A stretch of DNA of 38,309 nt from Candidatus Woesearchaeota archaeon (GCA_964600865.1 CAZRJP010000004.1:1-38309); one strand, 5' to 3'; counted from the first letter of the stretch, positions 3,001 through 32,675 are shown. The notes: generated by a model not told the origin, from the sequence alone. A program made the numbers and translations.

Positions 3001-6000
3001 GGTCAAAATTTAATTATAGATTCCAATAATATCACTGGAAATGGAATAGGGAAATCATTATCTGATAGAAATGGAATTTATTTATGGGGGTATGAAAGGG
3101 ACAATGATTATTTCCAGGTAACAAACAATAATCTTGAAGATAATCATAATGGACTTTATATTTATGATATTACTAAGACAAACATTACAAATAATACTTT
3201 TATTAATAATTCCTATGCTTCTGGTAGCTCAGGAATTTTTCTTGAAGCAGATGTAAGTTATAATGCATTTAATTCTAATATCTTCAAAGAGAATACAATA
3301 GGATTACAAAGTGATAGCTCAGGAAGTAATCATTATAATAATTTCTCTGCTAATACTATTTATAATAATGAATATGGTATTGAAATTGAAAGTTTTGCTG
3401 GAGGTAATAATATTTTTTATCTCAATAATTTATCATCGAATAGAATTATTGGATTGCGGATTGATTCTGATAATAATAATGTAACAAAGAATTTTATTGT
3501 AGATAATCCTTCTGGAGTTAATTTATCCTCTGGTGCAGATAATAATAGGGTTTTTGATAATTATTTTAATAATACTAATGATGCAGATGATGAGGGAAGT
3601 TTAGGAGATAATTTTTGGAATACAACATACAATTGTGATGGGGAAGAAAACATCATTGGAGGAGATTGTATTGGAGGTAATTTTTGGGCAAGTTATTATG
3701 ATAGAAGAAATGCAACAGATAGAGATGGAGATGGAATAGGTGATGATGTTATACCCTGGAGTTCTTCAGAAAGTTTAGATATATATGGGAATGTTCAAGA
3801 TTATTTACCTTTGACTATAATAAGGTGTGGGGATGAGTTAGTAGATGATACTAATTTAACTAGTTATAATAATCTTACAAATTGTTCTAGTAATGGATTA
3901 AATATCATTTCAAATGAGGTAAGTTTAGATTGTGATTTACAGATTATTAATTCTACGGGAAATAATTATGGAATTCATGTAGATAGTGTTAAAAATATTA
4001 GTGTAGAAAATTGTAATATAAAGAATTTTTCAACAGGTATTTATGTTAATGGCTCAAATTATTCTACTCTTAAACACAATCTTTTAAGATATAATGTTTT
4101 GGGGATAAATGTAAGTGAGAATTCTAATGATAGTTTAATTTATTATAATTATTTTAATAATACTAATGATAATAATGCTTATGATTTAGGAACAGATACT
4201 GATTGGAATAATTCTGTTTTAGGTAATTTTTGGAGTGATTATTATGAAGAGAATTATACAGATAGTCCTAGGGATGATTATAATTTATCTGTTTATGGAG
4301 GTATTGCAATAGATGGGACAACTATTGATGGCAATATTGATTATGAGCCACACACATTAGACCAGTATTATGACTCAATTTTTGAATGTGGAGCAGTAAT
4401 TACTGCAGAATATAATAATAAGGAGATAAATCTAATAAATGATTTAGAGTGTGAAGGAGATGGGATTATAATTGACTTTTATTCTGAAGGTAGTGTAGAC
4501 AATATAACAATAGACTGTGATGGAGATTCTTTAACAGGTGATGGAACTGGATCTGGAATTAAAGCAATAGGTCAAGGAGAGAGGGATAGGGAATTTAAAA
4601 ATTCTGAGATAAAAAATTGCGAGATACATGATTTTGATAGGGCTATAGAATTTAAATCTCATGCTTATGCAGAATCAGGATGTTTAGTTGGAGGATGTCC
4701 TGCTAGGGAATGGAAAAAACAAGTAATTCATGATATTTCTATAGATAATAATAAACTTAATAGTTCTGTTTATGGAATTGATATTTCATCTGATGAGGAT
4801 ATTTATGAAGTTGCAGGAAGTTGTGTTTGGCCTTGTAATGATGCATGTGAAACTGCAGATGTTTATAATTTAAATATAACTAATAATGATATTACTGAAA
4901 ATTTCTATGGGGTGTATTTAACAAATGATCCTTCGGATGATTCTTCTGATTGTAGTGATAGTGAAGAGGATGCAAATGTTAGAAATTTTAATGTTAGTTC
5001 TAATATTATTAGTGGGAATACTTATGGAATTAAATTAACAAGAGAGGCCTCTAGAGATGAATTTCCTAAATTAAATACTTTTTATAATAATTTCTTTAAT
5101 AATACTAATGAAGAGAATATGTCTTCTGGTTCACAAGAGAATTATTGGAATATTTCTTATAGTTCAGGATTAAATATTGTTGGGGGGTATCAAATGGGAG
5201 GAAATTATTGGACTAATTATACTGGAAGTGATGATGGTTCAGGATCAAGTCATCCATGGAATATTTCTGGAGATTATATTGGGGATACTTTAATTCCTTT
5301 TAATGGGACGACAAATGAAAGTGTAGTAAATGGAGGGGATTGGTTACCTTTAATATTCTATAATATACTTTCTGAGATGGAGGAGGTTTTTGTAAATTCA
5401 TCAACTGGAAATAATTATTCTGCAGATGACTTAATATGTTATGCTCAAGCAAGTGATGAAGATGGAGATAATTTAAGTTATAATGGAACATGGTATAAAA
5501 ATGGGGCAGTAAATTTTAGTTTTGATACAAGCCCTACAAACTATACTCAAGGAGTTTTGGTAAATGTTTCAACATTAGATTCAGGAAATACTTCTATAGG
5601 AGAGAATTGGTCTTGCAGTGTTCAAAGTTATGATAGTAAGAATTATTCTGGTGTTTTATTTTCTAGTAATTTAACAATTGAGGATTCAACTCCTCCAAAT
5701 GTAACAATAAATACTCCACTTAATCAAACTTATGTAACTGATGAAATTAATTTTAATGTAACTGCAACAGATAATTATATTGGAGTAGATTCTTGCTGGT
5801 TTACTTTAAATTCAGGGGTTACAAATTACACTTTACAAAATACAACATATGTAGATGATTATAATTATACTAATTCATCAATGGCTCAAAGTAGTCACAT
5901 TGCTGAGTTTTATTGTAATGATTCAAATAATAATATTAATAATTCAGAAAATGTGGGTTTTTTCATAGATTCAATTAATCCTTTAATTGACATAGAAACA

Positions 6001-20898: not shown

Positions 20899-21279
20899 TT
20901 AAATTATTTTTGCTTCTTTGAGGTTTTTGAAATGGTTGTCGCAAGTTAGAATTTTTGCAGAAATGGATTTTGCAGAAGCCATAATGAATGTATCTGCTAA
21001 ACTTATTGATTTTATTTTTTCTTTTAATTGTGCGTGTAATAATCCTGCTTCCTTTGCTATTTCAGGAGTTATTTCAAGGATATTTACATTTGAAGTAAGA
21101 ATATTATAAGCTATTTTTACATTTTTATTTCTTCTTTTTACTTTACTGATGACTTCTCCAATATTTACAGAAAGAGTGTATATTTTATTATTGCTTTTTA
21201 ATAATTTATTGACTTTTTCACCTGTTTCACTTCCTTCAAGATATTCTATCCAAGCAGAAGAATCAATTAGATATTTCAT
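20899..21279 (-). CDS. vapC: PIN-domain ribonuclease toxin VapC
   Basis: MKYLIDSSAWIEYL (first acidic residue), ...SLADTFIMASA..., ...ILTCDNHF. 126 aa. It starts 1 nt after the upstream antitoxin stop. Confidence 0.85.
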   Translation of the reverse strand: MKYLIDSSAWIEYLEGSETGEKVNKLLKSNNKIYTLSVNIGEVISKVKRRNKNVKIAYNILTSNVNILEITPEIAKEAGLLHAQLKEKIKSISLADTFIMASAKSISAKILTCDNHFKNLKEAKII

Positions 21280-21280
21280 T

Positions 21281-21481
21281 TTAGTTTCTATCTCTCATTC
21301 TATCTTTTTTAGTGAATTTGCCTACACCTTTTAGAATCCCAAATCCTTCTATCTTTTTTTTCTTTACTTGTATTTCAACAATTTCTTCTTCTCTAAGTTG
21401 CTCTAATTCAACAATTTCTTTTGGAATAGTCACTACTAAAGAACCCCCTACTTTCCTGGTTGTCGCAAGTGTTTGTGTCAT
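21281..21481 (-). CDS. vapB: AbrB/SpoVT-type antitoxin VapB
   Basis: RKVGGSLVVTIPKEIVELEQLREEEIVEIQV is a swapped-hairpin AbrB signature. 66 aa. Tightly coupled to vapC. Confidence 0.8.
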   Translation of the reverse strand: MTQTLATTRKVGGSLVVTIPKEIVELEQLREEEIVEIQVKKKKIEGFGILKGVGKFTKKDRMRDRN

Positions 21482-21601: not shown

Positions 21602-23317
21602 ATGAAGATTTTAACATTACATACAGATTACATTAAGTTTAAACCATTGAAAAAGGCATTAAAGAAAATAAAGGAACTTTCAAAAAAAGATAAGAAAGAG
21701 CAACATGTAAAAGATGCTTTAGTAGTTATGACTGCTGTTGAAAAGATTGATGAAGATGTTAAGAAAGTTGTTTCTAAATTGATTTCTGAGGTTAAAGATA
21801 TTGCTTCTCAAGTAAAAACAAAGAATATTGTTTTATATCCTTATGCTCATTTGTCAAGTAATTTAGCTAAACCTAATATTGCAGAAAAAGTTTTGAAAAA
21901 AGCAGAAGAAGGATTGAAAAAAACATTTAATGTTGCAAGAGCACCTTTTGGATATTATAAGGAATTTGAATTAAAGGTTAAAGGACATCCTTTATCTGAA
22001 TTAAGTAGAGAGATTGTTTTAAAGGGAGATGGTAAAAGCATTAAAGAGGGAGAAGAGTATGATTCTAAACAATTATTAAATGAAATCTCTAAATCTAAGT
22101 TAGATACATCTAAGTTAAAAGGTAATGACCATAGAATTATTGGAAAGCAAATGGATTTGTTTAGTTTTAATGATGTTGCTCCAGGAATGGTTTTTTGGCA
22201 TAATAATGGCCTTGTATTATATAATGAATTAGTTAAATTTATGAGAGAACTTTTACAAAAAAATGATTATGAAGAGATTAAAACCCCACAGATATTAGAT
22301 AAAAGACTTTGGCAAATTTCAGGTCATTGGGAAAAGTATAATGAGAATATTTTTTTAACAAAATATGATGAAAGAGATTTTGCAGTTAAACCAATGAATT
22401 GTCCTGGAGGAATGTTGGTTTATAAGAATGGTTCTAAGAGTTATAGAGATTTGCCTTTGAGAACAGGAGAATTTGGTGTTGTTCATAGGCAGGAATTATC
22501 TGGAGTTTTGGGAGGATTGTTTAGAGTAATACAATTTACACAGGATGATGCACATGTATTTTGTACTGAAAAACAAGTAGAACAAGAGATTGAAAAAATA
22601 ATGGATTTAATGTCTTATGTTTATGATAAACTTGGATTGAAATTAGATCATGTTGAACTTTCTACAAGGCCTAAGAAAAGAATAGGAGATGATAAAATAT
22701 GGGATTTATCTGAGAATACTTTAAAGAAAGTTTTAGAGAAAAAGAAAATTAAGTTTAAGATTAATAAAGGAGATGGAGCTTTTTATGGTCCTAAGATTGA
22801 TTATCATCTTAAAGACTCATTAAAGAGGACATGGCAATTAGGGACTATACAACTTGATTTTGCAATGCCTGAGAGATTTGATTTAGAATATACCACTAAA
22901 GATAATAAAAAGAAAAGACCAATTATGTTACATAGAGTTATTTATGGTTCTTTAGAGAGGTTTATTGGAATATTAATTGAACATACTAATGGAAGATTTC
23001 CTACATGGTTATCTCCAATCCAAGTAAGGGTTTTGAATTTTACTGATAGAAATACTAAGACAGCTAAAGATGTTTTAGAGAAGATTAAAAAAGAGATGCC
23101 TAATGTAAGGATTGATTCTGATTTTTCAAGTAGTACTATGGGTGCAAAAGTAAAGTCAGCAGAAATTATGAGGGTACCATATATTTTAACAATAGGAGAT
23201 AAAGAGGAAAAAGCAGGAACAATTGCTGTTAGAGAAAAAGGAAGCAGTAAAATTAGTTCAATGAGTGTTGATGATTTTATTTCTAAGTTAAAAACAGAGA
23301 TTGAAGAGAAAAAATAG
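21602..23317 (+). CDS. thrS: Threonyl-tRNA synthetase with archaeal N-terminal editing domain
   Basis: N-terminal ~140 aa archaeal editing domain (MKILTLHTDYIKFKP...). Class II core motifs DHRIIGKQMDLF, VKPMNCPGGMLVY, FRVIQFTQDDAHVFC and GAFYGPKID. C-terminal anticodon-binding domain. Confidence 0.92.
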   Translation: MKILTLHTDYIKFKPLKKALKKIKELSKKDKKEQHVKDALVVMTAVEKIDEDVKKVVSKLISEVKDIASQVKTKNIVLYPYAHLSSNLAKPNIAEKVLKKAEEGLKKTFNVARAPFGYYKEFELKVKGHPLSELSREIVLKGDGKSIKEGEEYDSKQLLNEISKSKLDTSKLKGNDHRIIGKQMDLFSFNDVAPGMVFWHNNGLVLYNELVKFMRELLQKNDYEEIKTPQILDKRLWQISGHWEKYNENIFLTKYDERDFAVKPMNCPGGMLVYKNGSKSYRDLPLRTGEFGVVHRQELSGVLGGLFRVIQFTQDDAHVFCTEKQVEQEIEKIMDLMSYVYDKLGLKLDHVELSTRPKKRIGDDKIWDLSENTLKKVLEKKKIKFKINKGDGAFYGPKIDYHLKDSLKRTWQLGTIQLDFAMPERFDLEYTTKDNKKKRPIMLHRVIYGSLERFIGILIEHTNGRFPTWLSPIQVRVLNFTDRNTKTAKDVLEKIKKEMPNVRIDSDFSSSTMGAKVKSAEIMRVPYILTIGDKEEKAGTIAVREKGSSKISSMSVDDFISKLKTEIEEKK

Positions 23318-23365
23318 AATTTTATAAATAATAATTCTTATAAAGTCCTTTAATGTATTTTTGAT

Positions 23366-23887
23366 ATGAACTTTAAATTTTATGTAGAAAAGCTTAATGA
23401 TTCAGAAGAATACAAAAAATTCCTTAAAGAAAATAAAGGGGCTTTTCCAGTATCTGCTTTTTTTATAATAGATAAAAAGAGTGGTGACAATAAGCAACAT
23501 TTTGATTATTTTATTCCTTCTCAAGAAAAAATGTTTAGTTTTAAGTTAGAAGACGAGTGTAAAAAGGTTCCAGTTGAGGTTGCAGATAAATCAAAATTAA
23601 AAAAAGAGAACGAAATTTCCTTGGATAGATTTGATTTTGATTTTGGTAAAATAGAAAAGATGATTGAAGCAGAGATGTTTGATAAAAAAATTAAAAAAGA
23701 TATTCATAAATTGTTATTATCTATACAGAATAAGGATGAAAAACAATTTATTTTGGCAACAGTGTTTATTTCCAATATGGGGCTTTTGAAAGTAACAATA
23801 GATTTAGAGAATATGAAGATACTAGATTTTGAGAAAAAGAGTTTATTAGATATGTTTAAGATTAAGAAAAATAAAAAAAGTAAGTAA
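23366..23887 (+). CDS. Hypothetical protein
   Basis: Clean 173-aa ORF with no motif I recognise. Confidence 0.55.
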   Translation: MNFKFYVEKLNDSEEYKKFLKENKGAFPVSAFFIIDKKSGDNKQHFDYFIPSQEKMFSFKLEDECKKVPVEVADKSKLKKENEISLDRFDFDFGKIEKMIEAEMFDKKIKKDIHKLLLSIQNKDEKQFILATVFISNMGLLKVTIDLENMKILDFEKKSLLDMFKIKKNKKSK

Positions 23888-23899
23888 TTTTAGTTTTTG
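23887..23899 (+). repeat. Cassette-boundary core, copy 0 (ATTTTAGTTTTTG)
   Basis: Begins at the last base of the stop codon of 23366..23887 (TAA 23885-23887). Identical 13-mer at 24487-24499. Confidence 0.75.
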
Positions 23900-23961
23900 A
23901 AGATAGGAGTATTTATATAGCTAATTATATATCAGTATATAACTAATATATAATAAATAAA

Positions 23962-24189
23962 ATGGCAAAAGAATCAACAATTTTGATAAAAAAAGAATTA
24001 ATTGAAAAATTAAAAAGTGCAAAAGATTATCCTAGAGAGACATATAATGATGTTCTTGAAAAGATGATAAAACTATATCTTTCTACAAAAAAGAAAAATC
24101 AATATGACGAATTTTTGCATAAAGTTCAACAGCCAAAAATGAAAGAGTTATGGGATAATAAAGAAGATGAGGCGTGGGAAAATGCATGA
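23962..24189 (+). CDS. Antitoxin of the archaeal small VapB-like/RHH-like family (L..LK...ETYNDV motif)
   Basis: ILIKKELIEKLKSAKDYPRETYNDVLEKMIKLY. Paralogous N-terminal modules occur in 24793..25050 and 31201..31431. Overlaps the downstream toxin (ATGCATGA). Confidence 0.7.
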   Translation: MAKESTILIKKELIEKLKSAKDYPRETYNDVLEKMIKLYLSTKKKNQYDEFLHKVQQPKMKELWDNKEDEAWENA

Positions 24190-24484
24190 TTTTGGAGATG
24201 TAATCTTGGCTGAAGTTCAATTTACAGATACTTTTGAAATAAAAACCAGACCGGCTCTTGTTTTATTTGAGGAGCAAGGAAATGTGGTTGTTGTTGGAAT
24301 AACAAGTAATCTTAATATGAAAGGAGTGCAATTAACTAAAAAAGAAGGGGCAGTAAAAGAGAGTGTAATAAAACTTAATTATATTTTTACTATTTCTGAT
24401 AAAATGATCAAGAAAAATTTGTTTAAACTTTCTAAAAAGAAAAAGAAAATTGTTAAAAAAGAGTTATTGGATAAGATTAAATAA
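24182..24484 (+). CDS. PemK/MazF-like toxin (divergent)
   Basis: FGDVILAEVQFTDTFEIKTRPALVLFEEQGNVVVVGITSN fits the PemK pattern (gdi..v.f......k.RPalVl........v..iTs). ATG at 24182 is preferred; the ORF track starts at 24167. Confidence 0.7.
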   Translation: MHDFGDVILAEVQFTDTFEIKTRPALVLFEEQGNVVVVGITSNLNMKGVQLTKKEGAVKESVIKLNYIFTISDKMIKKNLFKLSKKKKKIVKKELLDKIK

Positions 24485-24486
24485 TT

Positions 24487-24540
24487 ATTTTAGTTTTTGG
24501 ACAATAAAATTAATCATTAATTTTGAGTTGTGTTTTTGAG
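24487..24540 (+). repeat. Cassette-boundary core copy 1 plus a pseudo-copy of the methyltransferase 3' end
   Basis: ATTTTAGTTTTTGG followed by ACAATAAAATTAATCATTAATTTTGAGTTGTGTTTTTGAG. Compare 25073-25132, TATTTAAGTTTTTGG TTTCTTAATAATAAAATTAATCATTAATTCTGAGTTGTGTTTTGA. Confidence 0.8.
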
Positions 24541-24541
24541 G

Positions 24542-24796
24542 TTATTTATAGATATTTCTTCTAGGTCCTATATCTAATATTTGGATGATTAATTTAGATT
24601 GAATTATATTATATAGTACTCTATATTTTCCAATTCTTAATTTCCATAATCCTTTTAAGTTTCCTATAAGTGGGCATCCTAATTTAGGGTTGTTTTTTAG
24701 TTTAGTTATTTTTTTTAAAATTCTTTTTTGTTTTTGTTTGTCTAATTTTTTTAGAAATCTTTTAGCTGGTTTTTTAAAAATAATTTCATATTTCAT
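24542..24796 (-). CDS. relE: RelE/ParE-family toxin
   Basis: ...KKITKLKNNPKLGCPLIGNLKGLWKLRIGKYRVLYNIIQSKLIIQILDIGPRRNIYK is a classic RelE/StbE pattern. 4-nt overlap with the upstream antitoxin. Confidence 0.85.
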   Translation of the reverse strand: MKYEIIFKKPAKRFLKKLDKQKQKRILKKITKLKNNPKLGCPLIGNLKGLWKLRIGKYRVLYNIIQSKLIIQILDIGPRRNIYK

Positions 24797-25050
24797 AGAT
24801 TTAACTCTTTTTTCACTTCTTCAAGGCTTGTTCCTCCTTTTTCTTGAAGTGATTGTTTTAAATCCCTCATTGATTTAGGATCAGATAGAACTTCTATTGT
24901 TGCAATTAAACTTTCTCTATTTGCATTTTGAGGAGAAATATCAGATATCAATCTTTTTATTATATCATTGTACGTTTCCCTATGATGTATTTTTAATGAA
25001 TCTAATTTTGCTTTTGTTTTATTGTCTAATTGAATTGTTGTTATAGCCAT
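24793..25050 (-). CDS. Antitoxin for RelE (same N-terminal module family as 23962..24189)
   Basis: TTIQLDNKTKAKLDSLKIHHRETYNDIIKRLISD plus the RelB-like tail ...LSDPKSMRDLKQSLQEKGGTSLEEVKKEL. Confidence 0.75.
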   Translation of the reverse strand: MAITTIQLDNKTKAKLDSLKIHHRETYNDIIKRLISDISPQNANRESLIATIEVLSDPKSMRDLKQSLQEKGGTSLEEVKKELNL

Positions 25051-25072
25051 AGTTAACTATAGAATGCCATAG

Positions 25073-25132
25073 TATTTAAGTTTTTGGTTTCTTAATAATA
25101 AAATTAATCATTAATTCTGAGTTGTGTTTTGA
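25073..25132 (+). repeat. Cassette-boundary core copy 2 plus the genuine methyltransferase 3' end
   Basis: TATTTAAGTTTTTGG overlaps the stop codon (25076-25078) of the methyltransferase gene. Confidence 0.8.
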
Positions 25133-25690
25133 TGCAATTTTAAAACCTGTATCTTTGAATAATTTATGTATTTCTTTTTCAGTAAAGAGATAATAGTATC
25201 TTTTTCCTTTGTCTGTCCATCCAATATATCTTTCTTGAGATTCATATTTTTTGAATCTTTTTGAGTCTTTGTTCCATACACCAATAAGTGCCTTTGCTCC
25301 TGGTTTTAAAACTCTATAAAATTCCTCTATTATTTTTTTATGTTCTCTTGGTGGAGTACAATGTATTGAAGATATTGAAATTCCTGCATCAAAAAAATTA
25401 TCTTTAAAGGGTAAATTAGAAATTCTTCCAACATAAAATTCTGCATCAATATTTTTTTCTTTAGCTTTTTTCTTTGCCAGTTTTAACATTTTTTTACTAA
25501 AATCAATAAGATATATTTTTCCATCTTTTATCTTGGTTAAATGTCTACCACTACCAGACCCTAAATCAATAACATCCCCTTTTTGATTTTTTAAGAATTT
25601 TTTTGAGAGTTTTGAAGGTATTTTTTTATATTCGTGCCATTCAGGGGCTATTTTATCCCATACTTCTTGTTGTGATTGTATTCTTTCCAT
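25076..25690 (-). CDS. Class I SAM-dependent methyltransferase, Trm9/ALKBH8-methyltransferase-like
   Basis: Motif I VIDLGSGSGRH. GISISSIHCTPPREHKKIIEEFYRVLKPGAKALIGVWNKDSK parallels the Trm9/ALKBH8 block ISIAVIHH....RR......E..R.L.PGGKALIYVWA. Confidence 0.7.
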   Translation of the reverse strand: MERIQSQQEVWDKIAPEWHEYKKIPSKLSKKFLKNQKGDVIDLGSGSGRHLTKIKDGKIYLIDFSKKMLKLAKKKAKEKNIDAEFYVGRISNLPFKDNFFDAGISISSIHCTPPREHKKIIEEFYRVLKPGAKALIGVWNKDSKRFKKYESQERYIGWTDKGKRYYYLFTEKEIHKLFKDTGFKIASKHNSELMINFIIKKPKT

Positions 25691-25752
25691 TTTTTCCCTA
25701 CATATTAATAAAAGTTTGTTAAACTTAAAAAGCCTGGGATTATAGATAATAC

Positions 25753-27153
25753 ATGAAAAAACCTAAGAAAGGAGAAGTTAGAAAACCAACTAAAACAATA
25801 TCAGGAATTACTCCAGTAGCAGTTATGCTTCCTCCTAGAAAGTGTGAACATGGTTGTTGTGTTTATTGTCCTAATTTAGATGTTCCTCAATCTTATACTC
25901 CAAAAAGTCCGGTGGTATTAAGAGCTTCAAAAGTTGGTTTTGATAGTTTTAAACAAGTTAAAGGTAGAATAAATGCATTTAAGGCGATGAATCATCCCAC
26001 AGAAAAAATAGAGTTAATTATTATGGGAGGAACATTTTTAGAGTATTCTAAGGAGTTTCAATATAAATTTGTTAAGGGTTGCTATGATGCTATGAATGGT
26101 AAAAAATCTAAGAATTTAGAAGAAGCAAAAAAGTTTAATGAAAGTGCAAAACATAGATGTGTTGCCTTATGTATTGAAACAAGGCCAGATAAATGTATGC
26201 AGTTTATTGATAGAATGAGGGAATTTGGATGTACTAGGGTTGAATTAGGTGTTCAGATTATTGATGATGAGATTTATAAAAAGGTTAAGAGAGGTCATAC
26301 TGTAAAAGATGTTATAAATACTACTAGAGAATTGAAAAATGCTGGATTTAAAGTAGGATATCATATTATGCCTGGATTGCCAGGAAGTAATTTTAAGAAA
26401 GATTTGAAATTATTTAAGAAGATTTTTTCTGATGAGAGATTTAAACCAGACCAACTTAAATTATATCCTTGTCAGGTTATGCCTAATAGTGAATTAGAAG
26501 AGTGGTATTTTAATGGAAAGTATAAACCATATCCTAAAGAAAAAATTCAAAAATTATTACTTAAAATGCTTAAGAATGTTCCAAGATATTGTAGAGTTAT
26601 GAGGGTTATGAGAGAAATACCTCCTGAGTTTATGACCGCTGGAACTAAGAGAATTGATTTAAGAAATGAAATTGAAAAGGAATTAAGAGAAAAAAATGCT
26701 AATCTTAAAGAGATTAGATATAGAGAAATAGGATTCGCTTTAAGGCATAAGAAAAAAGAAGATATTAATCAGGATTTAAGGTTAAAAATTACAAAGTATG
26801 ATTCTTCTAATGGAAGAGAGTATTTTTTAGAAATTGTTAATAAAAATAATATTTTATTTGGTTTGTTGAGATTAAGAATTTTTGGAGAAGGAGATGATAG
26901 GAGTGCTATTATTCGTGAAGTGCATGTTTATGGAAAGGTATTAAATATAGGAAAAAAATCTGAAAAAGAGATAATTGCACAGCATAAAGGTTTAGGAAAG
27001 CAGTTAATTGGTAAGGCAGAGAGTATTATGAAGGAAGAAAAAATAGGTAAATTAAAAGTAATTTCTGGTGTTGGAGTTAGAGAGTATTATAAGAAACTTG
27101 GATATAAGCTTGAAAGTGAAGAAAAAGGAGAGTATATGGTTAAAAGCATATAA
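25753..27153 (+). CDS. elp3: Elp3-type radical SAM + GNAT tRNA U34 modification enzyme
   Basis: RKPTKTISGITPVAVMLPPRKCEHGCCVYCP (radical-SAM cluster Cys). ALCIETRPD, VELGVQ. C-terminal GNAT region ...REVHVYGKV...QHKGLGKQLI... Confidence 0.88.
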   Translation: MKKPKKGEVRKPTKTISGITPVAVMLPPRKCEHGCCVYCPNLDVPQSYTPKSPVVLRASKVGFDSFKQVKGRINAFKAMNHPTEKIELIIMGGTFLEYSKEFQYKFVKGCYDAMNGKKSKNLEEAKKFNESAKHRCVALCIETRPDKCMQFIDRMREFGCTRVELGVQIIDDEIYKKVKRGHTVKDVINTTRELKNAGFKVGYHIMPGLPGSNFKKDLKLFKKIFSDERFKPDQLKLYPCQVMPNSELEEWYFNGKYKPYPKEKIQKLLLKMLKNVPRYCRVMRVMREIPPEFMTAGTKRIDLRNEIEKELREKNANLKEIRYREIGFALRHKKKEDINQDLRLKITKYDSSNGREYFLEIVNKNNILFGLLRLRIFGEGDDRSAIIREVHVYGKVLNIGKKSEKEIIAQHKGLGKQLIGKAESIMKEEKIGKLKVISGVGVREYYKKLGYKLESEEKGEYMVKSI

Positions 27154-27190
27154 TTGAATATATATTTTTAATTATAATTAAAAAGTAAGA

Positions 27191-27211
27191 GTTTCTATTG
27201 AGAATAGAAAC
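27191..27211 (+). terminator. Perfect 9-bp-stem hairpin downstream of elp3
   Basis: GTTTCTATT-GAG-AATAGAAAC, 38 nt after the elp3 stop. Its function (terminator or recombination site) is not established. Confidence 0.35.
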
Positions 27212-27244
27212 TTCTTCCATTAGTAATAGAAAGATTTGTATGTT

Positions 27245-27406
27245 TTATTTTATATGTAGTCTATTGTGGGACAAATAGGAGGATGTTTCGTTTCCCTTTA
27301 AATTACTTATCATTTCTCTTGTTGTTGCTGTTTTTAATTTATAATTATTATAGAGGTTGAATATATTTGTTAGGATGTGCCCTATTTCAGTCAGGGCACT
27401 TACCAT
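27245..27406 (-). CDS. Boundary module A: short (53 aa) HTH-like ORF
   Basis: MVSALTEIGHILTNIFNLYNNYKLKTATTREMISNLKGNETSSYLSHNRLHIK. Nt 27257-27349 are ~98% identical to 29591-29684 (one substitution, one 1-nt indel). A 7-bp-stem hairpin GTGCCCT-N9-AGGGCAC lies at 27377-27399. Confidence 0.45.
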   Translation of the reverse strand: MVSALTEIGHILTNIFNLYNNYKLKTATTREMISNLKGNETSSYLSHNRLHIK

Positions 27407-27464
27407 TCTAGCGAGAATTGAGTAAGACCAATAATTTTTTAATCTTGCTTTTCTTTTAACTAAT

Positions 27465-27674
27465 ATGAAAATAGTGTTTACCAAACATGCTGAAAATAGA
27501 CTAGAGAAAAGAAAAATTACAAAAAGAGAAGTTAGAGATTCAATTAAGCAGGCTGATAAGACCGAGAAGAAAGATAATAAATATTATATTAGAAAGAATA
27601 TTGGAAGAGGTAAAATAGAGATTGTTTACGAAAAGGATAAATATATAAAAGTTATTACAGTTTATTGGATATAG
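27465..27674 (+). CDS. DUF4258-like small toxin
   Basis: KIVFTKHAENRLEKRKITKREVRDSIKQ...GRGKIEIVYEKDKYIKVITVYW. Paired with a DUF2283 gene. Confidence 0.7.
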   Translation: MKIVFTKHAENRLEKRKITKREVRDSIKQADKTEKKDNKYYIRKNIGRGKIEIVYEKDKYIKVITVYWI

Positions 27675-27732
27675 ATAACGTAAACTAAATTTTCAATAAT
27701 TAAAATTATAAAAAATATAAAGTCCAGGTAAA

Positions 27733-27942
27733 ATGAAAATAGAATTTGATAAAGAAGCTGATGCACTGTATATAGAATTTTCTAGTAAAGAATTTGCTAA
27801 AAATAAAAAGATAGATGACTCGACAATTATTGACTTGGATAAAGAAGGAAACATAATTGGCATTGAGCTATTAAATGTGAGTGAAAAACTGCCTAAAGAA
27901 GCTCTTTCTGATATTAATGTTAAAAACCTGATGACTGCTTGA
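27733..27942 (+). CDS. DUF2283-family protein (putative antitoxin partner)
   Basis: MKIEFDKEADALYIEF...STIIDLDKEGNIIGIELLNVSE is the canonical DUF2283 pattern. Confidence 0.78.
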   Translation: MKIEFDKEADALYIEFSSKEFAKNKKIDDSTIIDLDKEGNIIGIELLNVSEKLPKEALSDINVKNLMTA

Positions 27943-28137
27943 GTAAAGTATATTGCAACAAAACAACAAGTGCGCTCTTTTCATACAGACAGAAAGTACT
28001 CAGTTTAGAAAAATCTTTGATTAATCTATATCTAAAACTCTCTCATAATTATTATAACTCTGATTAGCGACTTCTTCTCTTTCTCTATCTTTAAACCTTC
28101 GCTATCTTAATGCCATTTTCTTGTTTTTTATGCTATT

Positions 28138-28302
28138 TTAAATCAGCCCTCTTATTATTTCCTCAGTTCCAGAAACCAATAAATGTTTGACTTTATCTTT
28201 TTTTTCAAACTTTTTTGTGTTTAATTTATTCAGCATTTCAACTATTGTTTTTCCTTTTAATTTATAATTATATTTAGTATGTGGGTTAGTAATTGTGATA
28301 AT
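28138..28302 (-). pseudogene. Boundary module B: diverged paralogue of modules A, C and D without a start codon
   Basis: Open frame IITITNPHTKYNYKLKGKTIVEMLNKLNTKKFEKKDKVKHLLVSGTEEIIRGLI*. An upstream in-frame TAA lies at 28303-28305. There is no ATG, GTG or TTG before EML. Confidence 0.4.
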
Positions 28303-28315
28303 TTATATTGCTATT

Positions 28316-28427
28316 TGTTATGATATATAACATAAATGTTATTATTTAGGTTTTTTGTTATACTATAAAAACCATTATATATGTTATAAAACATAACAGA
28401 AAACCTTAAAAACTATGTTTTTGTTAT
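28316..28427. promoter_or_regulatory. TGTTAT/ATAACA hexamer array upstream of the HEPN gene
   Basis: TGTTAT at 28316, 28337, 28356, 28382 and 28422. ATAACA at 28327 and 28393. Includes the palindromes GTTATGATATATAAC and TGTTATAAAACATAACA. Confidence 0.4.
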
Positions 28428-28455
28428 TTAATATGGATAGAGAAGAGTATAAAAA

Positions 28456-28824
28456 ATGACAGAAGAGAATAAAGATAAAAATCAGGAAATGAAAGAGATT
28501 TTAAGAGAGAATGTTAATGAATATTACAGAAACGGTAGTAATGCCCACAAGAGAGGAGAATACAATAGTTCTGTTACATTATTTTTCAAAGCTATATCTG
28601 GCTTGTGTGACTTATTCTTGTTAGATAAAGAGGGTAAAATTCCTAGTAGCCATTTAGAAAGGTTTAGAATATTAGAATCTAGTTATCCGAAGATATATAG
28701 GATCATAGATAAGGACTTTCCTTTTTACCAAAGTAGTTACTATTCAAAATTAAATAAAGAAACTTCCGAGTTGTTGAAAGAAGATGCCCAAAGACTATCT
28801 AAAATTATTGGAATCGAAATGTAA
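28456..28824 (+). CDS. HEPN-domain protein
   Basis: NAHKRGEYNSSVTLFFKAISGLCDLFLLDKEGKIPSSHLERFRIL fits the HEPN helix pattern (A...g.y..a...ay.A.e.alKa.l...g......H). Adjacent to a nucleotidyltransferase gene. Confidence 0.55.
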   Translation: MTEENKDKNQEMKEILRENVNEYYRNGSNAHKRGEYNSSVTLFFKAISGLCDLFLLDKEGKIPSSHLERFRILESSYPKIYRIIDKDFPFYQSSYYSKLNKETSELLKEDAQRLSKIIGIEM

Positions 28825-29362
28825 GAAATTTGCAGAACAAAATAACTTGTTTGATGTTGTTTTATACGGCTCATCAGTTAAAGGAAAAGAAAAACCTAGA
28901 GATATCGACCTTCTATTGATATTTGAAAATGAAAAACTAAAAAAGAGGGCAGAGAAAGGTCAGGAATTGAAAGAAGGATTGAAGAATAAAAAAATATCTA
29001 AAATTGATGTCAAGACAATAAACTTGAAGGAGATATTTGAAAAAGAGTTTTTAGCAAGGCAGGGTGTTTTGAGTGAAGGATATAGTTTGATTGATGATGA
29101 TTATTTCTCAAGGAAAATAGGATTTAAGGGAAATATGTTATTTAGTTATCGACTTAGTAAATTAAATCATAATGAAAAGACTAAGTTTACCTATGCTTTA
29201 AGTGGAAGGAATAGTGAAGGCATGTTAAATAAGGTAGGGGGAGAATCAGTAGGAAGAGGGGCAGTATTAATCCCTATAAAAAATAGCATTAAATTTAAGA
29301 ATTTCCTAGATAAATGGAATGTTGATTACGAACAAAAAACTTTACTAGTTTCCATAATATGA
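28784..29362 (+). CDS. Minimal nucleotidyltransferase (MNT-like) with a ~90-aa C-terminal extension
   Basis: FDVVLYGSSVKGKEKPRDIDLLLIF contains GS-x9-DxD. Overlaps the HEPN gene by 41 nt. Confidence 0.75.
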   Translation: MPKDYLKLLESKCKKFAEQNNLFDVVLYGSSVKGKEKPRDIDLLLIFENEKLKKRAEKGQELKEGLKNKKISKIDVKTINLKEIFEKEFLARQGVLSEGYSLIDDDYFSRKIGFKGNMLFSYRLSKLNHNEKTKFTYALSGRNSEGMLNKVGGESVGRGAVLIPIKNSIKFKNFLDKWNVDYEQKTLLVSII

Positions 29363-29544
29363 TATCTAAAAAAAGAATAAAGGAAGAAGCTGGAAAGAAG
29401 GGTAAAAAGATTGGAAAGAAATCCATAAAAGAGATTGAAAATATATTAAGACAGGAGCTTGGAGATATTATAAGAATGGCTAGCGATAGAGCAGATTTTT
29501 CAGGAAGAAAAACTATTAAGAAAGAAGATATAGATTATGATTAA
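29359..29544 (+). CDS. Short archaeal histone-fold protein (HMf-like, 61 aa)
   Basis: RIKEEAGKKGKKIGKKSIKEIENILRQELGDIIRMASDRADFSGRKTIKKEDIDY. Compare HMfB ...RIIKDAGAERVSDDA...[30 protein letters not shown]. ATGA overlap with the MNT gene. Confidence 0.65.
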   Translation: MISKKRIKEEAGKKGKKIGKKSIKEIENILRQELGDIIRMASDRADFSGRKTIKKEDIDYD

Positions 29545-29563
29545 TTTCATACTCCTCTCAATG

Positions 29564-29712
29564 CTAAAATAGTAAGCACCCTGACCGAGCTAGTCTATTG
29601 TGGGACAAATAGGAGGATGTTTCGTTTTCCCTTTAAATTACTTATCATTTCTCTTTTTGTTGCTGTTTTTAATTTATAATTATTGTCGAGGTTTAGCATA
29701 TGGGTTAGGTGA
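29564..29712 (-). pseudogene. Boundary module C: frameshifted copy of module A
   Basis: GHLTHMLNLDNNYKLKTATKREMISNLKG, then an extra T (CGTTTTCCC versus CGTTTCCC in A) shifts the frame. In the repaired frame it would end ...SHNRLARSGCLLF* at 29564. Confidence 0.5.
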
Positions 29713-29748
29713 CCACAAAATAAAAAGATATTTAAATCGTGGTCACCT
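29707..29748. promoter_or_regulatory. Perfect 10-bp-stem hairpin AGGTGACCAC-N22-GTGGTCACCT upstream of the Fic gene
   Basis: Arms at 29707-29716 and 29739-29748. Each arm contains a GGTSACC palindrome. Confidence 0.6.
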
Positions 29749-29760
29749 ATTATTTTTAGT

Positions 29761-30685
29761 ATGTTTATAGAAAAAAGAAAAACCAAGACAGGAATAAAAT
29801 ACTATCTGACCCATTCTTATAGAAAGAAAGGCAAGGTAAAGAAAATTAGGAAGTATTTAGGCAAAGACCTCTCTAAAAAAGAATTAAAAAAAGAGAGGGA
29901 GGAAGCCAAAAAAGAATTAAAAAAAGAGATCAAGCAGATTAGAATAGAGATATTTAATTTTACTCTTAAATCTGAAGAGGTAGATAAACTAAATAATCTT
30001 TCTGAAGTCGAAATCAAACATTTGGATAAATCAGACTGGAAAAAGTTTGAAGAGGATTTTGTTTATAATACAAATGCTATTGAAGGCTCGACAGTTAGAT
30101 TAGATGAAGTTAAAACTATTCTCCAGAAAAAACCAAAAACTACAGACCCAGAAGAAAAAGAAACTATTAATGTTTTAGAAGCCATAGAATTTATTAAAAA
30201 TAATCAAGACAGAGATTTGTCCTTAGGATTAATAAAAAAACTTCATCAAATTTGCTTTAAAGGGTCTAAGTCTTTCGCAGGTCGACTAAGAGATAAAGAA
30301 GTTGTTATCAGAAATGCAAAAGGAGAAATAATCCACAGAGGAGTTCCTTCAGAGGAAGTTAAAGATTATTTGAAAGAAATGATTGAGTGGTATAAAGAAA
30401 ATAAAGATAAGTTTAAGCTAATTGTTTTAGCTGCTTTAATCCATAACCAATTTGAACATATCCATCCTTTTGAAGATGGTAATGGTAGAGTTGGGAGGCT
30501 ATTATTAAATTTTGTATTGTTGAAGAATGATTATCCCCCGATTAATATATCTTGAAGATAGGAAAGAATATTATGACTGTTTAAAACAGTATTCTGATAA
30601 ACACAAGGTAGAACCAACTGTAAGATTTTTGGTTAAGCAGTATAAAAAGACATTAAAAAAGGAGACCACAGATTCAGGAAAATAG
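29761..30685 (+). pseudogene. Fic-domain protein (class with N-terminal inhibitory TxxxEG motif), interrupted by a frameshift at ~30548-30555
   Basis: Fic motif HIHPFEDGNGRVGRLL (30457-30498). Inhibitory-helix-like TNAIEG. The ORF stops at TGA 30553-30555, but the +1 frame continues YLEDRKEYYDCLKQYSDKHKVEPTVRFLVKQYKKTLKKETTDSGK* to 30685, which is the expected Fic C-terminus. Confidence 0.75.
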
Positions 30686-30700
30686 ATTTTTGTGGTCACC
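30661..30700. promoter_or_regulatory. Second GGWGACCACA-N20-TGTGGTCACC hairpin at the 3' end of the Fic gene
   Basis: 9 of 10 positions pair. GTGGTCACCTATT (30692-30704) repeats 29739-29751 exactly. Confidence 0.6.
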
Positions 30701-30852
30701 TATTCAGCGCCCTGATTGATTAACCTATCTTTATGGGTCAAATCAGGAGATGTTTCCTTGCCTTTTAATTTCTTTAGCATCTCTCTTGTTGTGGCTCTTT
30801 TTAATTTATAAATATTGTCAGAGTTAGTGGATATGGTATAAAATTTTTTCAA
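30700..30852 (-). CDS. Boundary module D: HTH-like ORF (50 aa, TTG start) immediately downstream of mazF
   Basis: LKKFYTISTNSDNIYKLKRATTREMLKKLKGKETSPDLTHKDRLINQGAE*. It differs from module A largely by synonymous or conservative changes (GCA/GCC, GAA/GAG, GGA/GGC, TCC/TCT, CAC/CAT). Confidence 0.4.
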   Translation of the reverse strand: MKKFYTISTNSDNIYKLKRATTREMLKKLKGKETSPDLTHKDRLINQGAE

Positions 30853-30859
30853 TAAAATG

Positions 30860-31213
30860 TTATCCTAAATCTAAACTAATTTTAATAGCCAAATCTATTT
30901 CTTTCATAATCTCATTATCTAGGGGAGAAATTTTTTTAATAATTCTTTTCTTATCTATGACCTTTATTTGATTAAGTAAAACTGTTGAATCTTTATCAAG
31001 TTTTGAATCTTTTTTGTCAAGAAACACATTTGTTGGGTATTCTTTACTAAATTTTTTTGAAGTAATTGGGGCAATTATGGTGGTTGGGCTATATTTATTT
31101 CCTAAATCATTTTGTATAATAACTGAAGGTCTTACTCCTCCTTGTTCACTACCTTTTATAGGTTCTAGATTTACAAGTACAATATCCCCTCTTTTTATTT
31201 TTACCATTTCCAA
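30860..31213 (-). CDS. mazF: MazF/PemK-family endoribonuclease toxin
   Basis: IKRGDIVLVNLEPIKGSEQGGVRPSVIIQNDLGNKYSPTTIIAPITS is the canonical MazF signature. Confidence 0.88.
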   Translation of the reverse strand: MEMVKIKRGDIVLVNLEPIKGSEQGGVRPSVIIQNDLGNKYSPTTIIAPITSKKFSKEYPTNVFLDKKDSKLDKDSTVLLNQIKVIDKKRIIKKISPLDNEIMKEIDLAIKISLDLG

Positions 31214-31431
31214 TCAAAATCCTCTTCTATAGCTTCGAACTCTTTGGTAATTTTAATGCTTTTTTCTGCCATTTTTTTATAGCCTTCTATTATTAACTCT
31301 TTTTTTTGCCTTCTTTGCTTCTCTAATTGGTCCATCATTTTAACTATTGTTTCTTCATATGTTTCTTTTTTAGATTTTAATCTGTCTAAGGCATTCTTTA
31401 CATTTTTGTTAAGTTGAATTGTGGTAACCAT
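31201..31431 (-). CDS. Antitoxin for MazF (same N-terminal module family as 23962..24189 and 24793..25050)
   Basis: TTIQLNKNVKNALDRLKSKKETYEETIVKMMDQL. 13-nt overlap with mazF. Confidence 0.72.
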   Translation of the reverse strand: MVTTIQLNKNVKNALDRLKSKKETYEETIVKMMDQLEKQRRQKKELIIEGYKKMAEKSIKITKEFEAIEEDFDWKW

Positions 31432-31505
31432 CTTGTCACTATAGATAAACTATAGTTTATAAATATTTTGATTTTAATTTTCAACTATATCATGAAAAAT
31501 TAGAA

Positions 31506-31578
31506 CGCCCCCGCCGAGATTCGAACTCGGGTCACTGCCTTGAAAGGGCAGCATACTTGGCCTCTGTACTACGGGGGC
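31506..31578 (-). tRNA. tRNA-Glu (anticodon UUC), 73 nt, no encoded CCA
   Basis: Minus strand: GCCCCCG-TA-GTAC-AGAGGCCAA-GTAT-G-CTGCC-CTTTCAA-GGCAG-TGAC-CCGAG-TTCGAAT-CTCGG-CGGGGGC-G. All stems pair and the T-loop is TTCGAAT. Confidence 0.9.
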
Positions 31579-31647
31579 ATATAGAAAATAAATGTCCAAT
31601 TAGTTTTTAAACCTAATGTTTATAAAATATAATCTCCCATTTTAGGT

Positions 31648-31800
31648 ATGCCAAAGAAATTTGATAGATGTGTTGAGAAGGTTAGTAAGAAGATAAAAAA
31701 AGGTGAGGTTAAAAAGACCTATAAGGACAAGAAAACAGGTAAGAGAAAGAAGTCAAATGCATATGCAATATGCAGAGCTAAATCTAAAAATAAAAAATAA
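31648..31800 (+). CDS. Small basic protein (50 aa), absent from the ORF track
   Basis: MPKKFDRCVEKVSKKIKKGEVKKTYKDKKTGKRKKSNAYAICRAKSKNKK*. The ...NAYAICRA... motif recalls small basic proteins seen in phage and archaeal genomes; the family is not verified. Confidence 0.5.
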   Translation: MPKKFDRCVEKVSKKIKKGEVKKTYKDKKTGKRKKSNAYAICRAKSKNKK

Positions 31801-32287: not shown

Positions 32288-32416
32288 GTTAAGTTCTGGT
32301 TTGTAGTGTATCTTTTTGAAAGATACGTTTATGTTAAGTTCTGGTTTGTAGTGTATCTTTTTGAAAGATACGTTTATGTTAAGTTCTGGTTTGTAGTGTA
32401 TCTTTTTGAAAGATAC
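32288..32416. repeat. Tandem direct repeat, 45-bp unit x 2.9, each unit carrying an 8-bp-stem palindrome
   Basis: The unit is GTTAAGTTCTGGTTTGTAGTGTATCTTTTTGAAAGATACGTTTAT, at 32288-32332, 32333-32377 and 32378-32416 (truncated). The copies are identical. The palindrome is GTATCTTT-TTG-AAAGATAC. Confidence 0.95.
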
Positions 32417-32518
32417 ATGAGCCTGCCTTACTCAAGCTTGCATTCGTAATTGATTTTAATTTGCCTTATGCAAACTTTCGGAATTTGAATTTAAACTTTT
32501 CCTGAGTTTAGCAAACCC

Positions 32519-32546: not shown

Positions 32547-32675
32547 TGAGCCTGCACGGATTTGAACCGTGGGCCCCTGCCTCTCTTAGAGCTAGTTAGT
32601 TCCAAAGAGGATTAATCCTTATTCGGATTAAACTCATATAAGAGCAGTGCTCTGACCAGGCTGAGCTACAGGCTC
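32547..32675 (-). tRNA. tRNA-Ile (anticodon UAU) with a 54-nt intron at the canonical 37/38 position
   Basis: Minus strand: GAGCCTG-TA-GCTC-AGCCTGGTCA-GAGC-A-CTGCT-CTTATA[54-nt intron]A-GGCAG-GGGCC-CACGG-TTCAAAT-CCGTG-CAGGCTC-A. Loop nts CTTA pair with intron TAAG (4-bp helix), flanked by the 3-nt bulges TA|T and AG|A, then inner helix GAG/CTC. This is a canonical bulge-helix-bulge. Confidence 0.8.

Follow-up and report, generated by a model that had tools for sequence, protein, structure and literature searches.

The 38,309-nucleotide (nt) contig CAZRJP010000004.1 of a Candidatus Woesearchaeota archaeon (GCA_964600865.1; hereafter the window, meaning this whole stretch) carries four related short sequences, modules A to D, which separate and flank three blocks of genes of mostly toxin-antitoxin (TA) type. 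The modules appear to be copies of one short orphan coding sequence of ∼40 to 58 codons on the minus strand, and the reading we favor, with confidence a little short of even, is that they are the docking (homology or attachment) sequences of a hotspot at which selfish TA blocks accrete. The original prediction for this DNA had proposed recombination or homology sites as one of two possibilities, and we retain the core of that proposal: the modules seem to lie at junctions where cargo recombined in, because A and C form a mosaic, repeats bracket the cargo, and a second site in the window shows accretion, with a relative that lacks one cassette there. The attC-like form, one of the two in which it was put forward, is not supported.

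Four copies of an orphan coding sequence

Repeat finding and MAFFT alignment recovered four module copies, all on the minus strand, and a degenerate core pattern occurs at exactly these 4 sites in the window, where 0.02 would be expected by chance. That A, C, and D are paralogues is beyond doubt. A profile made with nhmmer from these three only recovers B at 28220-28291 (E = 0.002, some 1,000-fold better than the next match in the window, E = 2.8), suggesting that B is a real but weak, marginal fourth member; no other part of the window resembles the modules.

Module A (27245-27422) contains a 53-amino-acid (aa) open reading frame (ORF) with an ATG start (27245-27406). It comprises a block shared with C, which we call block T (27257-27349), a diverged head (27350-27386), and an inverted-repeat arm (27387-27422), and it lacks the C-terminal tail common to B, C, and D (..(R/H)L..(S/Q)G..). 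Module B (28138-28302) is a strongly diverged copy with a 32-aa ORF (28138-28236) that begins at an internal ATG; there is no start codon 5′ of this position, and the YKLK..T..EM pattern and ..SG.. tail are kept. Module C (29557-29720) consists of a tail with an inverted-repeat arm (29557-29590), block T (29591-29684), and a head (29685-29720) that includes the inverted-repeat arm 29706-29720, and it is frameshifted by a 1-nt insertion, an extra thymine in the run at 29624-29627. Module D (30688-30852) holds an intact 50-aa ORF with a TTG start (30700-30852), which begins 7 nt past the mazF stop codon and whose own stop codon and 3′ flank form an inverted-repeat arm (30688-30702); D is also present in an independently assembled Logan contig (L012). 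Two of the four modules, B and C, are broken, as expected of scars. Hairpins stand beside A (27377-27399) and C (29706-29749), with arms 9 and 22 nt apart, and both are real. The one beside C, GGTGACCAC-N22-GTGGTCACC (29706-29751), lies between the module and the Fic gene and has a TATA-like TTTAAAT in its loop. The positions and strand of the modules, the defects in B and C, and the two hairpins were all claimed in the original prediction and are confirmed here.

The clearest sign of coding ancestry comes from A and D, which differ at 34 of 114 nt, with 9, 7, and 18 differences at the first, second, and third codon positions of the minus-strand frame, the only frame without stops. Randomizing the positions of the substitutions gave P = 0.004 for the third-position excess and P = 0.004 for amino acid identity; the comparison of A with B is saturated. 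We conclude that A and D diverged under purifying selection in a single minus-strand frame, which indicates that their ancestor was coding, as had been predicted, and that the copies did not simply decay where they stood after one local duplication but evolved as coding sequences.

What the peptide does is less evident. It had been read as the helix-turn-helix part of a winged-helix regulator, and this is unsupported because no family match was found and the AlphaFold2 model is of low confidence (two helices, pLDDT 64). Searches of Pfam, NCBIfam, and PADLOC gave no match, the best PDB comparison reached an E-value of 0.16 with no match accepted, and the sole weak profile signal was to PHROG 16862, a family of unknown function (E = 0.05-0.09). 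A ribbon-helix-helix (RHH) fold, considered for a likeness to the ...LKxKKETY... stretch of the local DUF7557 antitoxins, was dropped at an hhalign E-value of 0.34, and the Fic antitoxin motif (S/T)xxxE(G/N) was absent from the module peptides on inspection.

No homologue of the module peptides was found in a word-indexed search of 5.8 billion protein clusters or in a HMMER profile search of 1.84 billion representatives. Besides ORF B of the window itself, these brought up only two repetitive proteins, both spurious, one with helicase-associated-domain repeats and the other a CRISPR array read as protein. Databases of proteins have limited power here, since gene prediction left A and D uncalled even in the window. 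Pattern scans of DNA and peptides in IMG/VR, GTDB (one genome per species), and JGI metagenomes gave no copy beyond two chance matches (L002 and L003), the nucleotide scans using a strict DNA pattern and short ORFs being rarely called, and tblastn of the modules against plasmids and phages returned nothing. Further copies, for which the original prediction had suggested a search of genomes and metagenomes, were not encountered in any of these collections within the limits just given.

Junctions of the cargo

Across the 93 nt of block T, a single substitution and a single 1-nt indel separate A from C (98% identity at a spacing of 2,334 bp, as previously claimed). Outside it, the match breaks off sharply: the two are 72% identical on the head side (Fisher P = 6e-5) and no more alike than background on the tail side. 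When the head of A is joined through block T to the tail of C, the result is an intact 58-aa ORF, which we call the "incoming" module; when the head of C is joined through block T to the 3′ end of A, the result is again an intact ORF, of ∼39 aa, the "resident" module. Reciprocal recombination of two homologous modules would be expected to leave such joints, in register at either end. An inverted repeat also surrounds the 2.3-kb cargo between A and C: positions 27387-27422, just upstream of the A head, match 29557-29588 in the C tail at 27 of 32 positions with one gap (random-window P = 0.0025), an arrangement that would follow from a crossover within a module whose ends match. An 18-nt inverted repeat hugging the second cargo block (28437-28454 and 29545-29562) was marginal (P about 0.05) and was not used.

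The Fic gene, which lies between C and D, is bracketed by a perfect 13-bp direct repeat, GTGGTCACCTATT (left copy 29739-29751, right copy 30692-30704; P about 0.001), and by a perfect 15-bp inverted repeat (arms 29706-29720 and 30688-30702; P < 0.001). Removing the insert at the 13-bp repeat restores the succession of D, hairpin, and C. The control flanks (mazEF, the surroundings of B, and the outer edges of the island) showed no significant flanking repeats.

A second accretion site is found at 23887-25130, where copies of the 3′ end of a methyltransferase gene occur at 23887-23899, 24487-24536, and 25081-25130 (13, 50, and 50 nt), the last of them being the end of the live gene. The two 50-nt copies are 88% identical. 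Bracketed by these gene-end copies are a mazEF-like pair on the plus strand (23962-24484) and a ParE/RHH pair on the minus strand (24542-25050). In the closest relative (L005, positions 1046-2171; Elp3 77% identical), mazF abuts the methyltransferase gene at precisely the position of the middle copy and the ParE/RHH cassette is absent, which indicates that this cassette arrived along with a replacement methyltransferase gene end. A parallel case occurs in the Pacearchaeota genome GCA_016181895.1 (L009), where mazEF is flanked by a 41-nt direct repeat (5638-5678 and 6340-6380; 90% identical) that derives from the 3′ end of an Ogg gene, its right copy extending over the mazF stop codon as well as the end of the Ogg gene, which is convergent with mazF. 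The target duplications in these cases vary in length: 13, 41, 50, and 93 nt.

From the observed repeats, breakpoints, in-frame reconstructions, coding constraint, and second-site accretion with target duplication, we infer a circular intermediate, a direction of events, and an enzyme. The incoming DNA would probably be a small circle carrying a TA operon and its own module copy, and it would recombine in register with a resident module, in Campbell fashion, to leave a hybrid module on each side of the cargo. The 2.33-kb block of DUF4258/DUF2283, module B, and the 122-aa ORF with its nucleotidyltransferase and histone genes may have entered in this way through the 93-nt shared block; A would then be made of the incoming head, the shared block, and the resident 3′ end, and C of the resident head, the shared block, and the incoming tail. 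Module B would already have been inside the incoming block, as the scar of an earlier fusion. The Fic gene would have entered separately, at the hairpin between C and the D stop codon, with a 13-bp duplication. The reaction could be carried out by host homologous recombination or by a recombinase acting in trans, none being encoded in the window.

Cargo and surroundings of the array

Pfam searches confirmed the predicted order of the array, which runs A, DUF4258 and DUF2283, B, a 122-aa ORF with a minimal nucleotidyltransferase (MNT) and a histone, C, Fic, and D, followed by mazEF and tRNA-Glu. Two details had to be revised: the ORF at 28456-28824 that had been called HEPN has no detectable domain, and the Fic gene is split by a frameshift. 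The first cargo block (27465-27942) consists of DUF4258 (27465-27674) and DUF2283 (27733-27942); the second (28456-29544) of the 122-aa ORF, the MNT gene (28784-29362), and a histone-fold/DUF1931 gene (29359-29544); and the third (29761-30685) of the Fic-domain gene, all on the plus strand. The Fic frameshift, near 30527-30555 and just past the region of the HPFxDGNGR motif, is identical in Logan contig L012 and is therefore not one assembler's error. With three blocks separated and flanked by four modules, the array follows an n+1 pattern, and the blocks are co-oriented with a module on the 3′ side of each. Domains of TA type, a histone fold, and Fic are the only Pfam content of the inserts, which include no transposase or integrase, and no Phage_integrase domain was detected in the scanned ORFs of at least 70 aa across the 38-kb contig. 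Between 28298 and 28416, upstream of the 122-aa ORF/MNT operon, lies a long AT-rich imperfect palindrome with 51-nt arms and repeated TGTTAT/ATAACA, which looks like an operator array.

The mazEF operon (30860-31431) is on the minus strand, upstream of D and co-directional with it, and comprises mazF (30860-31213) and a DUF7557 RHH antitoxin gene (31201-31431). We considered the module as a part of the mazEF cassette and rejected this, as no ORF of this kind follows the mazF relatives of 78-79% identity in three other genomes. On its right, the island ends with tRNA-Glu(UUC) (31505-31579, minus strand). This gene was rejected as an attachment site: its 3′ half occurs once in the window, even with 3 mismatches allowed, and no fragment of it is duplicated. 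The island is lineage specific, its relatives carrying other genes after Elp3, and exact-protein look-ups for strain variants found all cargo proteins to be singletons at 90% identity.

The window is AT-rich throughout (GC content, 25-35%), and its housekeeping genes are archaeal: a threonyl-tRNA synthetase with the archaea-specific editing domain, a class I Trp/Tyr-type tRNA synthetase, phosphoenolpyruvate synthase, Elp3, and an Obg-like GTPase. The nearest Elp3 sequences are only 77% identical, and these, like the mazF relatives, belong to bins of Pacearchaeota, Woesearchaeota, and Nanoarchaeota. The two tRNA synthetase genes are separated by a vapBC pair (PIN toxin and AbrB-type antitoxin; 20899-21481), a position taken by another gene in a relative (L006); both vapBC coding sequences contain the exact 14-nt direct repeat TGGTTGTCGCAAGT, at 20933 and 21457. 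Another DPANN island (L008, 4570-10830; Logan assembly of SRR22388314) combines mazEF, about a dozen small unannotated ORFs, DUF2283, a ParE/MazE pair, and a tyrosine recombinase, and no repeated boundary module was found in it. On the far side of tRNA-Glu, a perfect 45-nt tandem repeat (32288-32416; 2.9 copies, 100% matches), each unit with a hairpin GTATCTTT-TTG-AAAGATAC, lies between a DUF5684 membrane protein gene and a putative intron-containing tRNA. This 129-nt tRNA (32547-32675, minus strand) was detected by Rfam at 54 bits and missed by ARAGORN, presumably owing to an intron, and its 3′-terminal ATGAGCCTGC recurs at 32418-32427, beside the tandem repeat.

Rival readings and known systems

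Several points weigh against docking. The modules come from a single locus in a single organism, with no further copy in the public collections searched, and the module array has no empty site or alternative cargo, its nearest relative being too distant. The cargo proteins, as singletons at 90% identity, do not point to recent spread; the 38 kb encode no recombinase; the Fic event duplicated 13 bp only and involved no module; and mazEF has no flanking repeat. The 93-nt identity block could also have been produced by gene conversion between two old paralogues, and the inverted repeats might just as well represent hairpin arms between the modules, with cargo inserted in the hairpin loops without a module.

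Taken together, such processes form the main rival, which we regard as possible though improbable. It holds that A to D are old tandem copies of a small host gene with hairpins between them, that the TA cassettes landed later by unrelated insertions, for instance into hairpin loops, and that the A/C identity is a gene-conversion tract, so that the modules would mark the junctions without mediating them. The direct D-hairpin-C adjacency restored by removing Fic agrees with this, a conversion tract would end at the boundary of A's homology, and the variable duplications (13, 41, 50, and 93 nt) fit nonspecific long target duplication better than one att core. However, three or four independent insertions would have to hit the gaps of one small tandem family, and the presence of a module head and a module tail at opposite ends of the same 2.33-kb DNA, each in frame with block T, would be left unexplained. 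No cargo-free tandem array of the module ORF appeared in the searched collections.

Docking and passive insertion would both be compatible with a further and rather unlikely reading, the other possibility raised in the original prediction, in which the module encodes a small regulator or third component, transcribed divergently from each TA operon, and the repeats reflect nothing beyond the shared descent of that gene. The distance from the ATG of A to the start of DUF4258 is 58 nt, and from the ATG of C to the start of Fic it is 61 nt, a spacing compatible with this reading, and the genes are divergent in both cases; these gaps contain AT-rich TATA-like sequences and a hairpin, and the coding constraint described above supports a translated product. 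The difficulty is that one family would have to serve four unrelated TA types, in an array where B and C are broken while the neighboring operons look intact, Fic excepted, and where D faces the 3′ end of mazF and not a promoter. In other genomes, relatives of mazEF occur without such an ORF, and no DNA-binding fold or family was detected for the peptide.

A function of the plus strand or of noncoding sequence, as small hydrophobic peptides resembling type I toxins, as a shared promoter, or as RNA, seems very unlikely. Very hydrophobic ORFs of 20 to 26 aa do occur on the plus strand in all four modules (27283-27360, 28187-28267, 29613-29675, and 30750-30827), and the best-conserved block, TTTTAATTTATAA, is similar to an archaeal TATA box. 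The substitutions speak against selection on these ORFs, which are probably a by-product, because the changes between A and D fall on their second codon position. Amino acid identity is 21/37 with stops in this frame against 23/38 without stops in the sense frame, and NNA codons would be expected to yield hydrophobic antisense ORFs in any case. A separate TATA-like box lies ∼25-30 nt from the start codon of every cargo operon, and Rfam found no RNA family in the modules, its matches in the window being to tRNA only.

That the repeats result from chimeric joining of strain variants is hardly credible. The Logan assembly of SRR7048220 contains the same DNA, with contigs that match the window at 100% over 22396-27286, 27264-29620, and 30451-31381, and these confirm five junctions at 100% (Elp3/A, A/DUF4258, histone/C, Fic/D, and D/mazF), coverage stopping short of the junction between C and Fic. 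These independent contigs break exactly at the A/C repeat, as an artefact might suggest, but a 93-nt repeat is expected to break k-mer assembly in this way, every junction retrieved is identical to the window, and B and D are too diverged to be collapsed or chimeric copies. The contig over D and mazF (L012) ends at 30451 in Fic and 31381 in mazE with no repeat visible at either end, and low coverage or strain variation could account for these ends.

How TA pairs move without a mobility gene of their own is still poorly explained, and DPANN archaea are rich in such pairs. The window holds three dated-looking insertions with intact junctions: the 2.33-kb A-C block, Fic, and the ParE/RHH cassette, for which a relative has the empty site. 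TA blocks here appear to enter by recombination that duplicates 13 to 93 nt of the target, with stacking at one site possible, a behavior so far described mainly for bacterial restriction-modification genes. If the modules are true docking sequences, they offer a concrete substrate for finding the responsible enzyme; if they are not, what remains is an ordinary TA island in which an orphan gene family is decaying.

Among known systems, integrons offer one parallel. Archaeal integrons exist, as do integrase-less attC clusters, also among Nanoarchaeota, and both often carry TA cassettes (PMC9668308). Like this locus, integron arrays consist of ∼1-kb, promoter-bearing TA cassettes in one orientation with a repeated site between them (PMC9668308), and the co-oriented cargo blocks with a module on the 3′ side of each would suit an integrase-less cluster with the modules as attC sites. 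This reading, the attC-like form of the original prediction, is nevertheless close to refuted. A regular-expression search of both strands of 23300-31700 found no pair of attC core sites R″ (RYYYAAC) and R′ (GTTRRRY) 50 to 160 nt apart; single-strand DNA folds of the four modules on both strands have z-scores of −2.2 to +0.7, stable hairpins occurring only outside the shared sequence; and no integrase was found in the window. In contrast to the structured attC of integrons (PMC9668308), the site here is a conserved coding sequence, retained by its codon pattern and not by structure. A more speculative idea, to which we attach little weight, is that DPANN archaea may carry a so far undescribed cassette system with integron-like logic but different parts: ∼1-kb mobile units made of a TA operon and a ∼180-nt, ORF-holding, inverted-repeat-bounded module as the recombination site, which would fuse, stack, and excise by module recombination through a host or trans-acting enzyme.

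With its 27/32 terminal inverted repeats, the reconstructed incoming module resembles a miniature inverted-repeat transposable element, a candidate we rejected given that there is no target duplication, only four copies at one locus, and coding constraint. The dif modules of plasmids are bounded by 28-bp Xer sites (11-6-11) in alternating orientation. Those of Acinetobacter plasmids are short, often carry TA pairs, lie between recombination sites, and owe their movement to a host recombinase whose gene is elsewhere (PMC6449649, PMC13141974), whereas here no short site is shared by all boundaries apart from the modules, and the hairpin arms are 9 and 22 nt apart. Tandem accretion at att sites, as in tyrosine-recombinase islands at tRNA genes or gene 3′ ends, is similar in that n cassettes come with n+1 target copies, that the copy brought in makes the target gene whole again (as happens at the methyltransferase gene), and that a block of identity has diverged flanks. 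It differs in that here there is no integrase in or near any unit, the units are only 0.55-1.5 kb, and the duplication does not involve tRNA-Glu.

Insertion with long target duplication was reportedly described for restriction-modification cassettes by Nobusato et al. in 2000. The bacterial restriction-modification genes surveyed by Furuta, Abe and Kobayashi in 2010 (PMC2853133) include addiction blocks without mobility genes, flanked by direct repeats of tens to hundreds of base pairs that often cover the 3′ end of a neighboring gene, with a related genome that has a single repeat copy and no insert; some units have imperfect inverted repeats and a short duplication, and no archaeal case was reported (PMC2853133). 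The methyltransferase-site cassettes, the Pacearchaeota mazEF, and the A/C pair fit this description (PMC2853133). Docking as favored here would operate in much the same manner, and also in that of the tandem att-site accretion described above. Direct repeats exceed 30 bp at A/C (93 nt, 98%), at the methyltransferase site (50 nt, 88%), and at the Pacearchaeota locus (41 nt, 90%), with Fic at 13 bp only; the inserts are free of transposase and integrase and carry addiction-type cargo, as in the known cases; and for the ParE/RHH cassette, the relative in which mazF abuts the methyltransferase gene provides the insert-free counterpart. The locus differs from the bacterial cases (PMC2853133) in its type II TA pairs, its DPANN-type archaeal host, the serial stacking at one target, and the fact that the DNA entering the module array seems to have carried a diverged target copy of its own, joined in frame.

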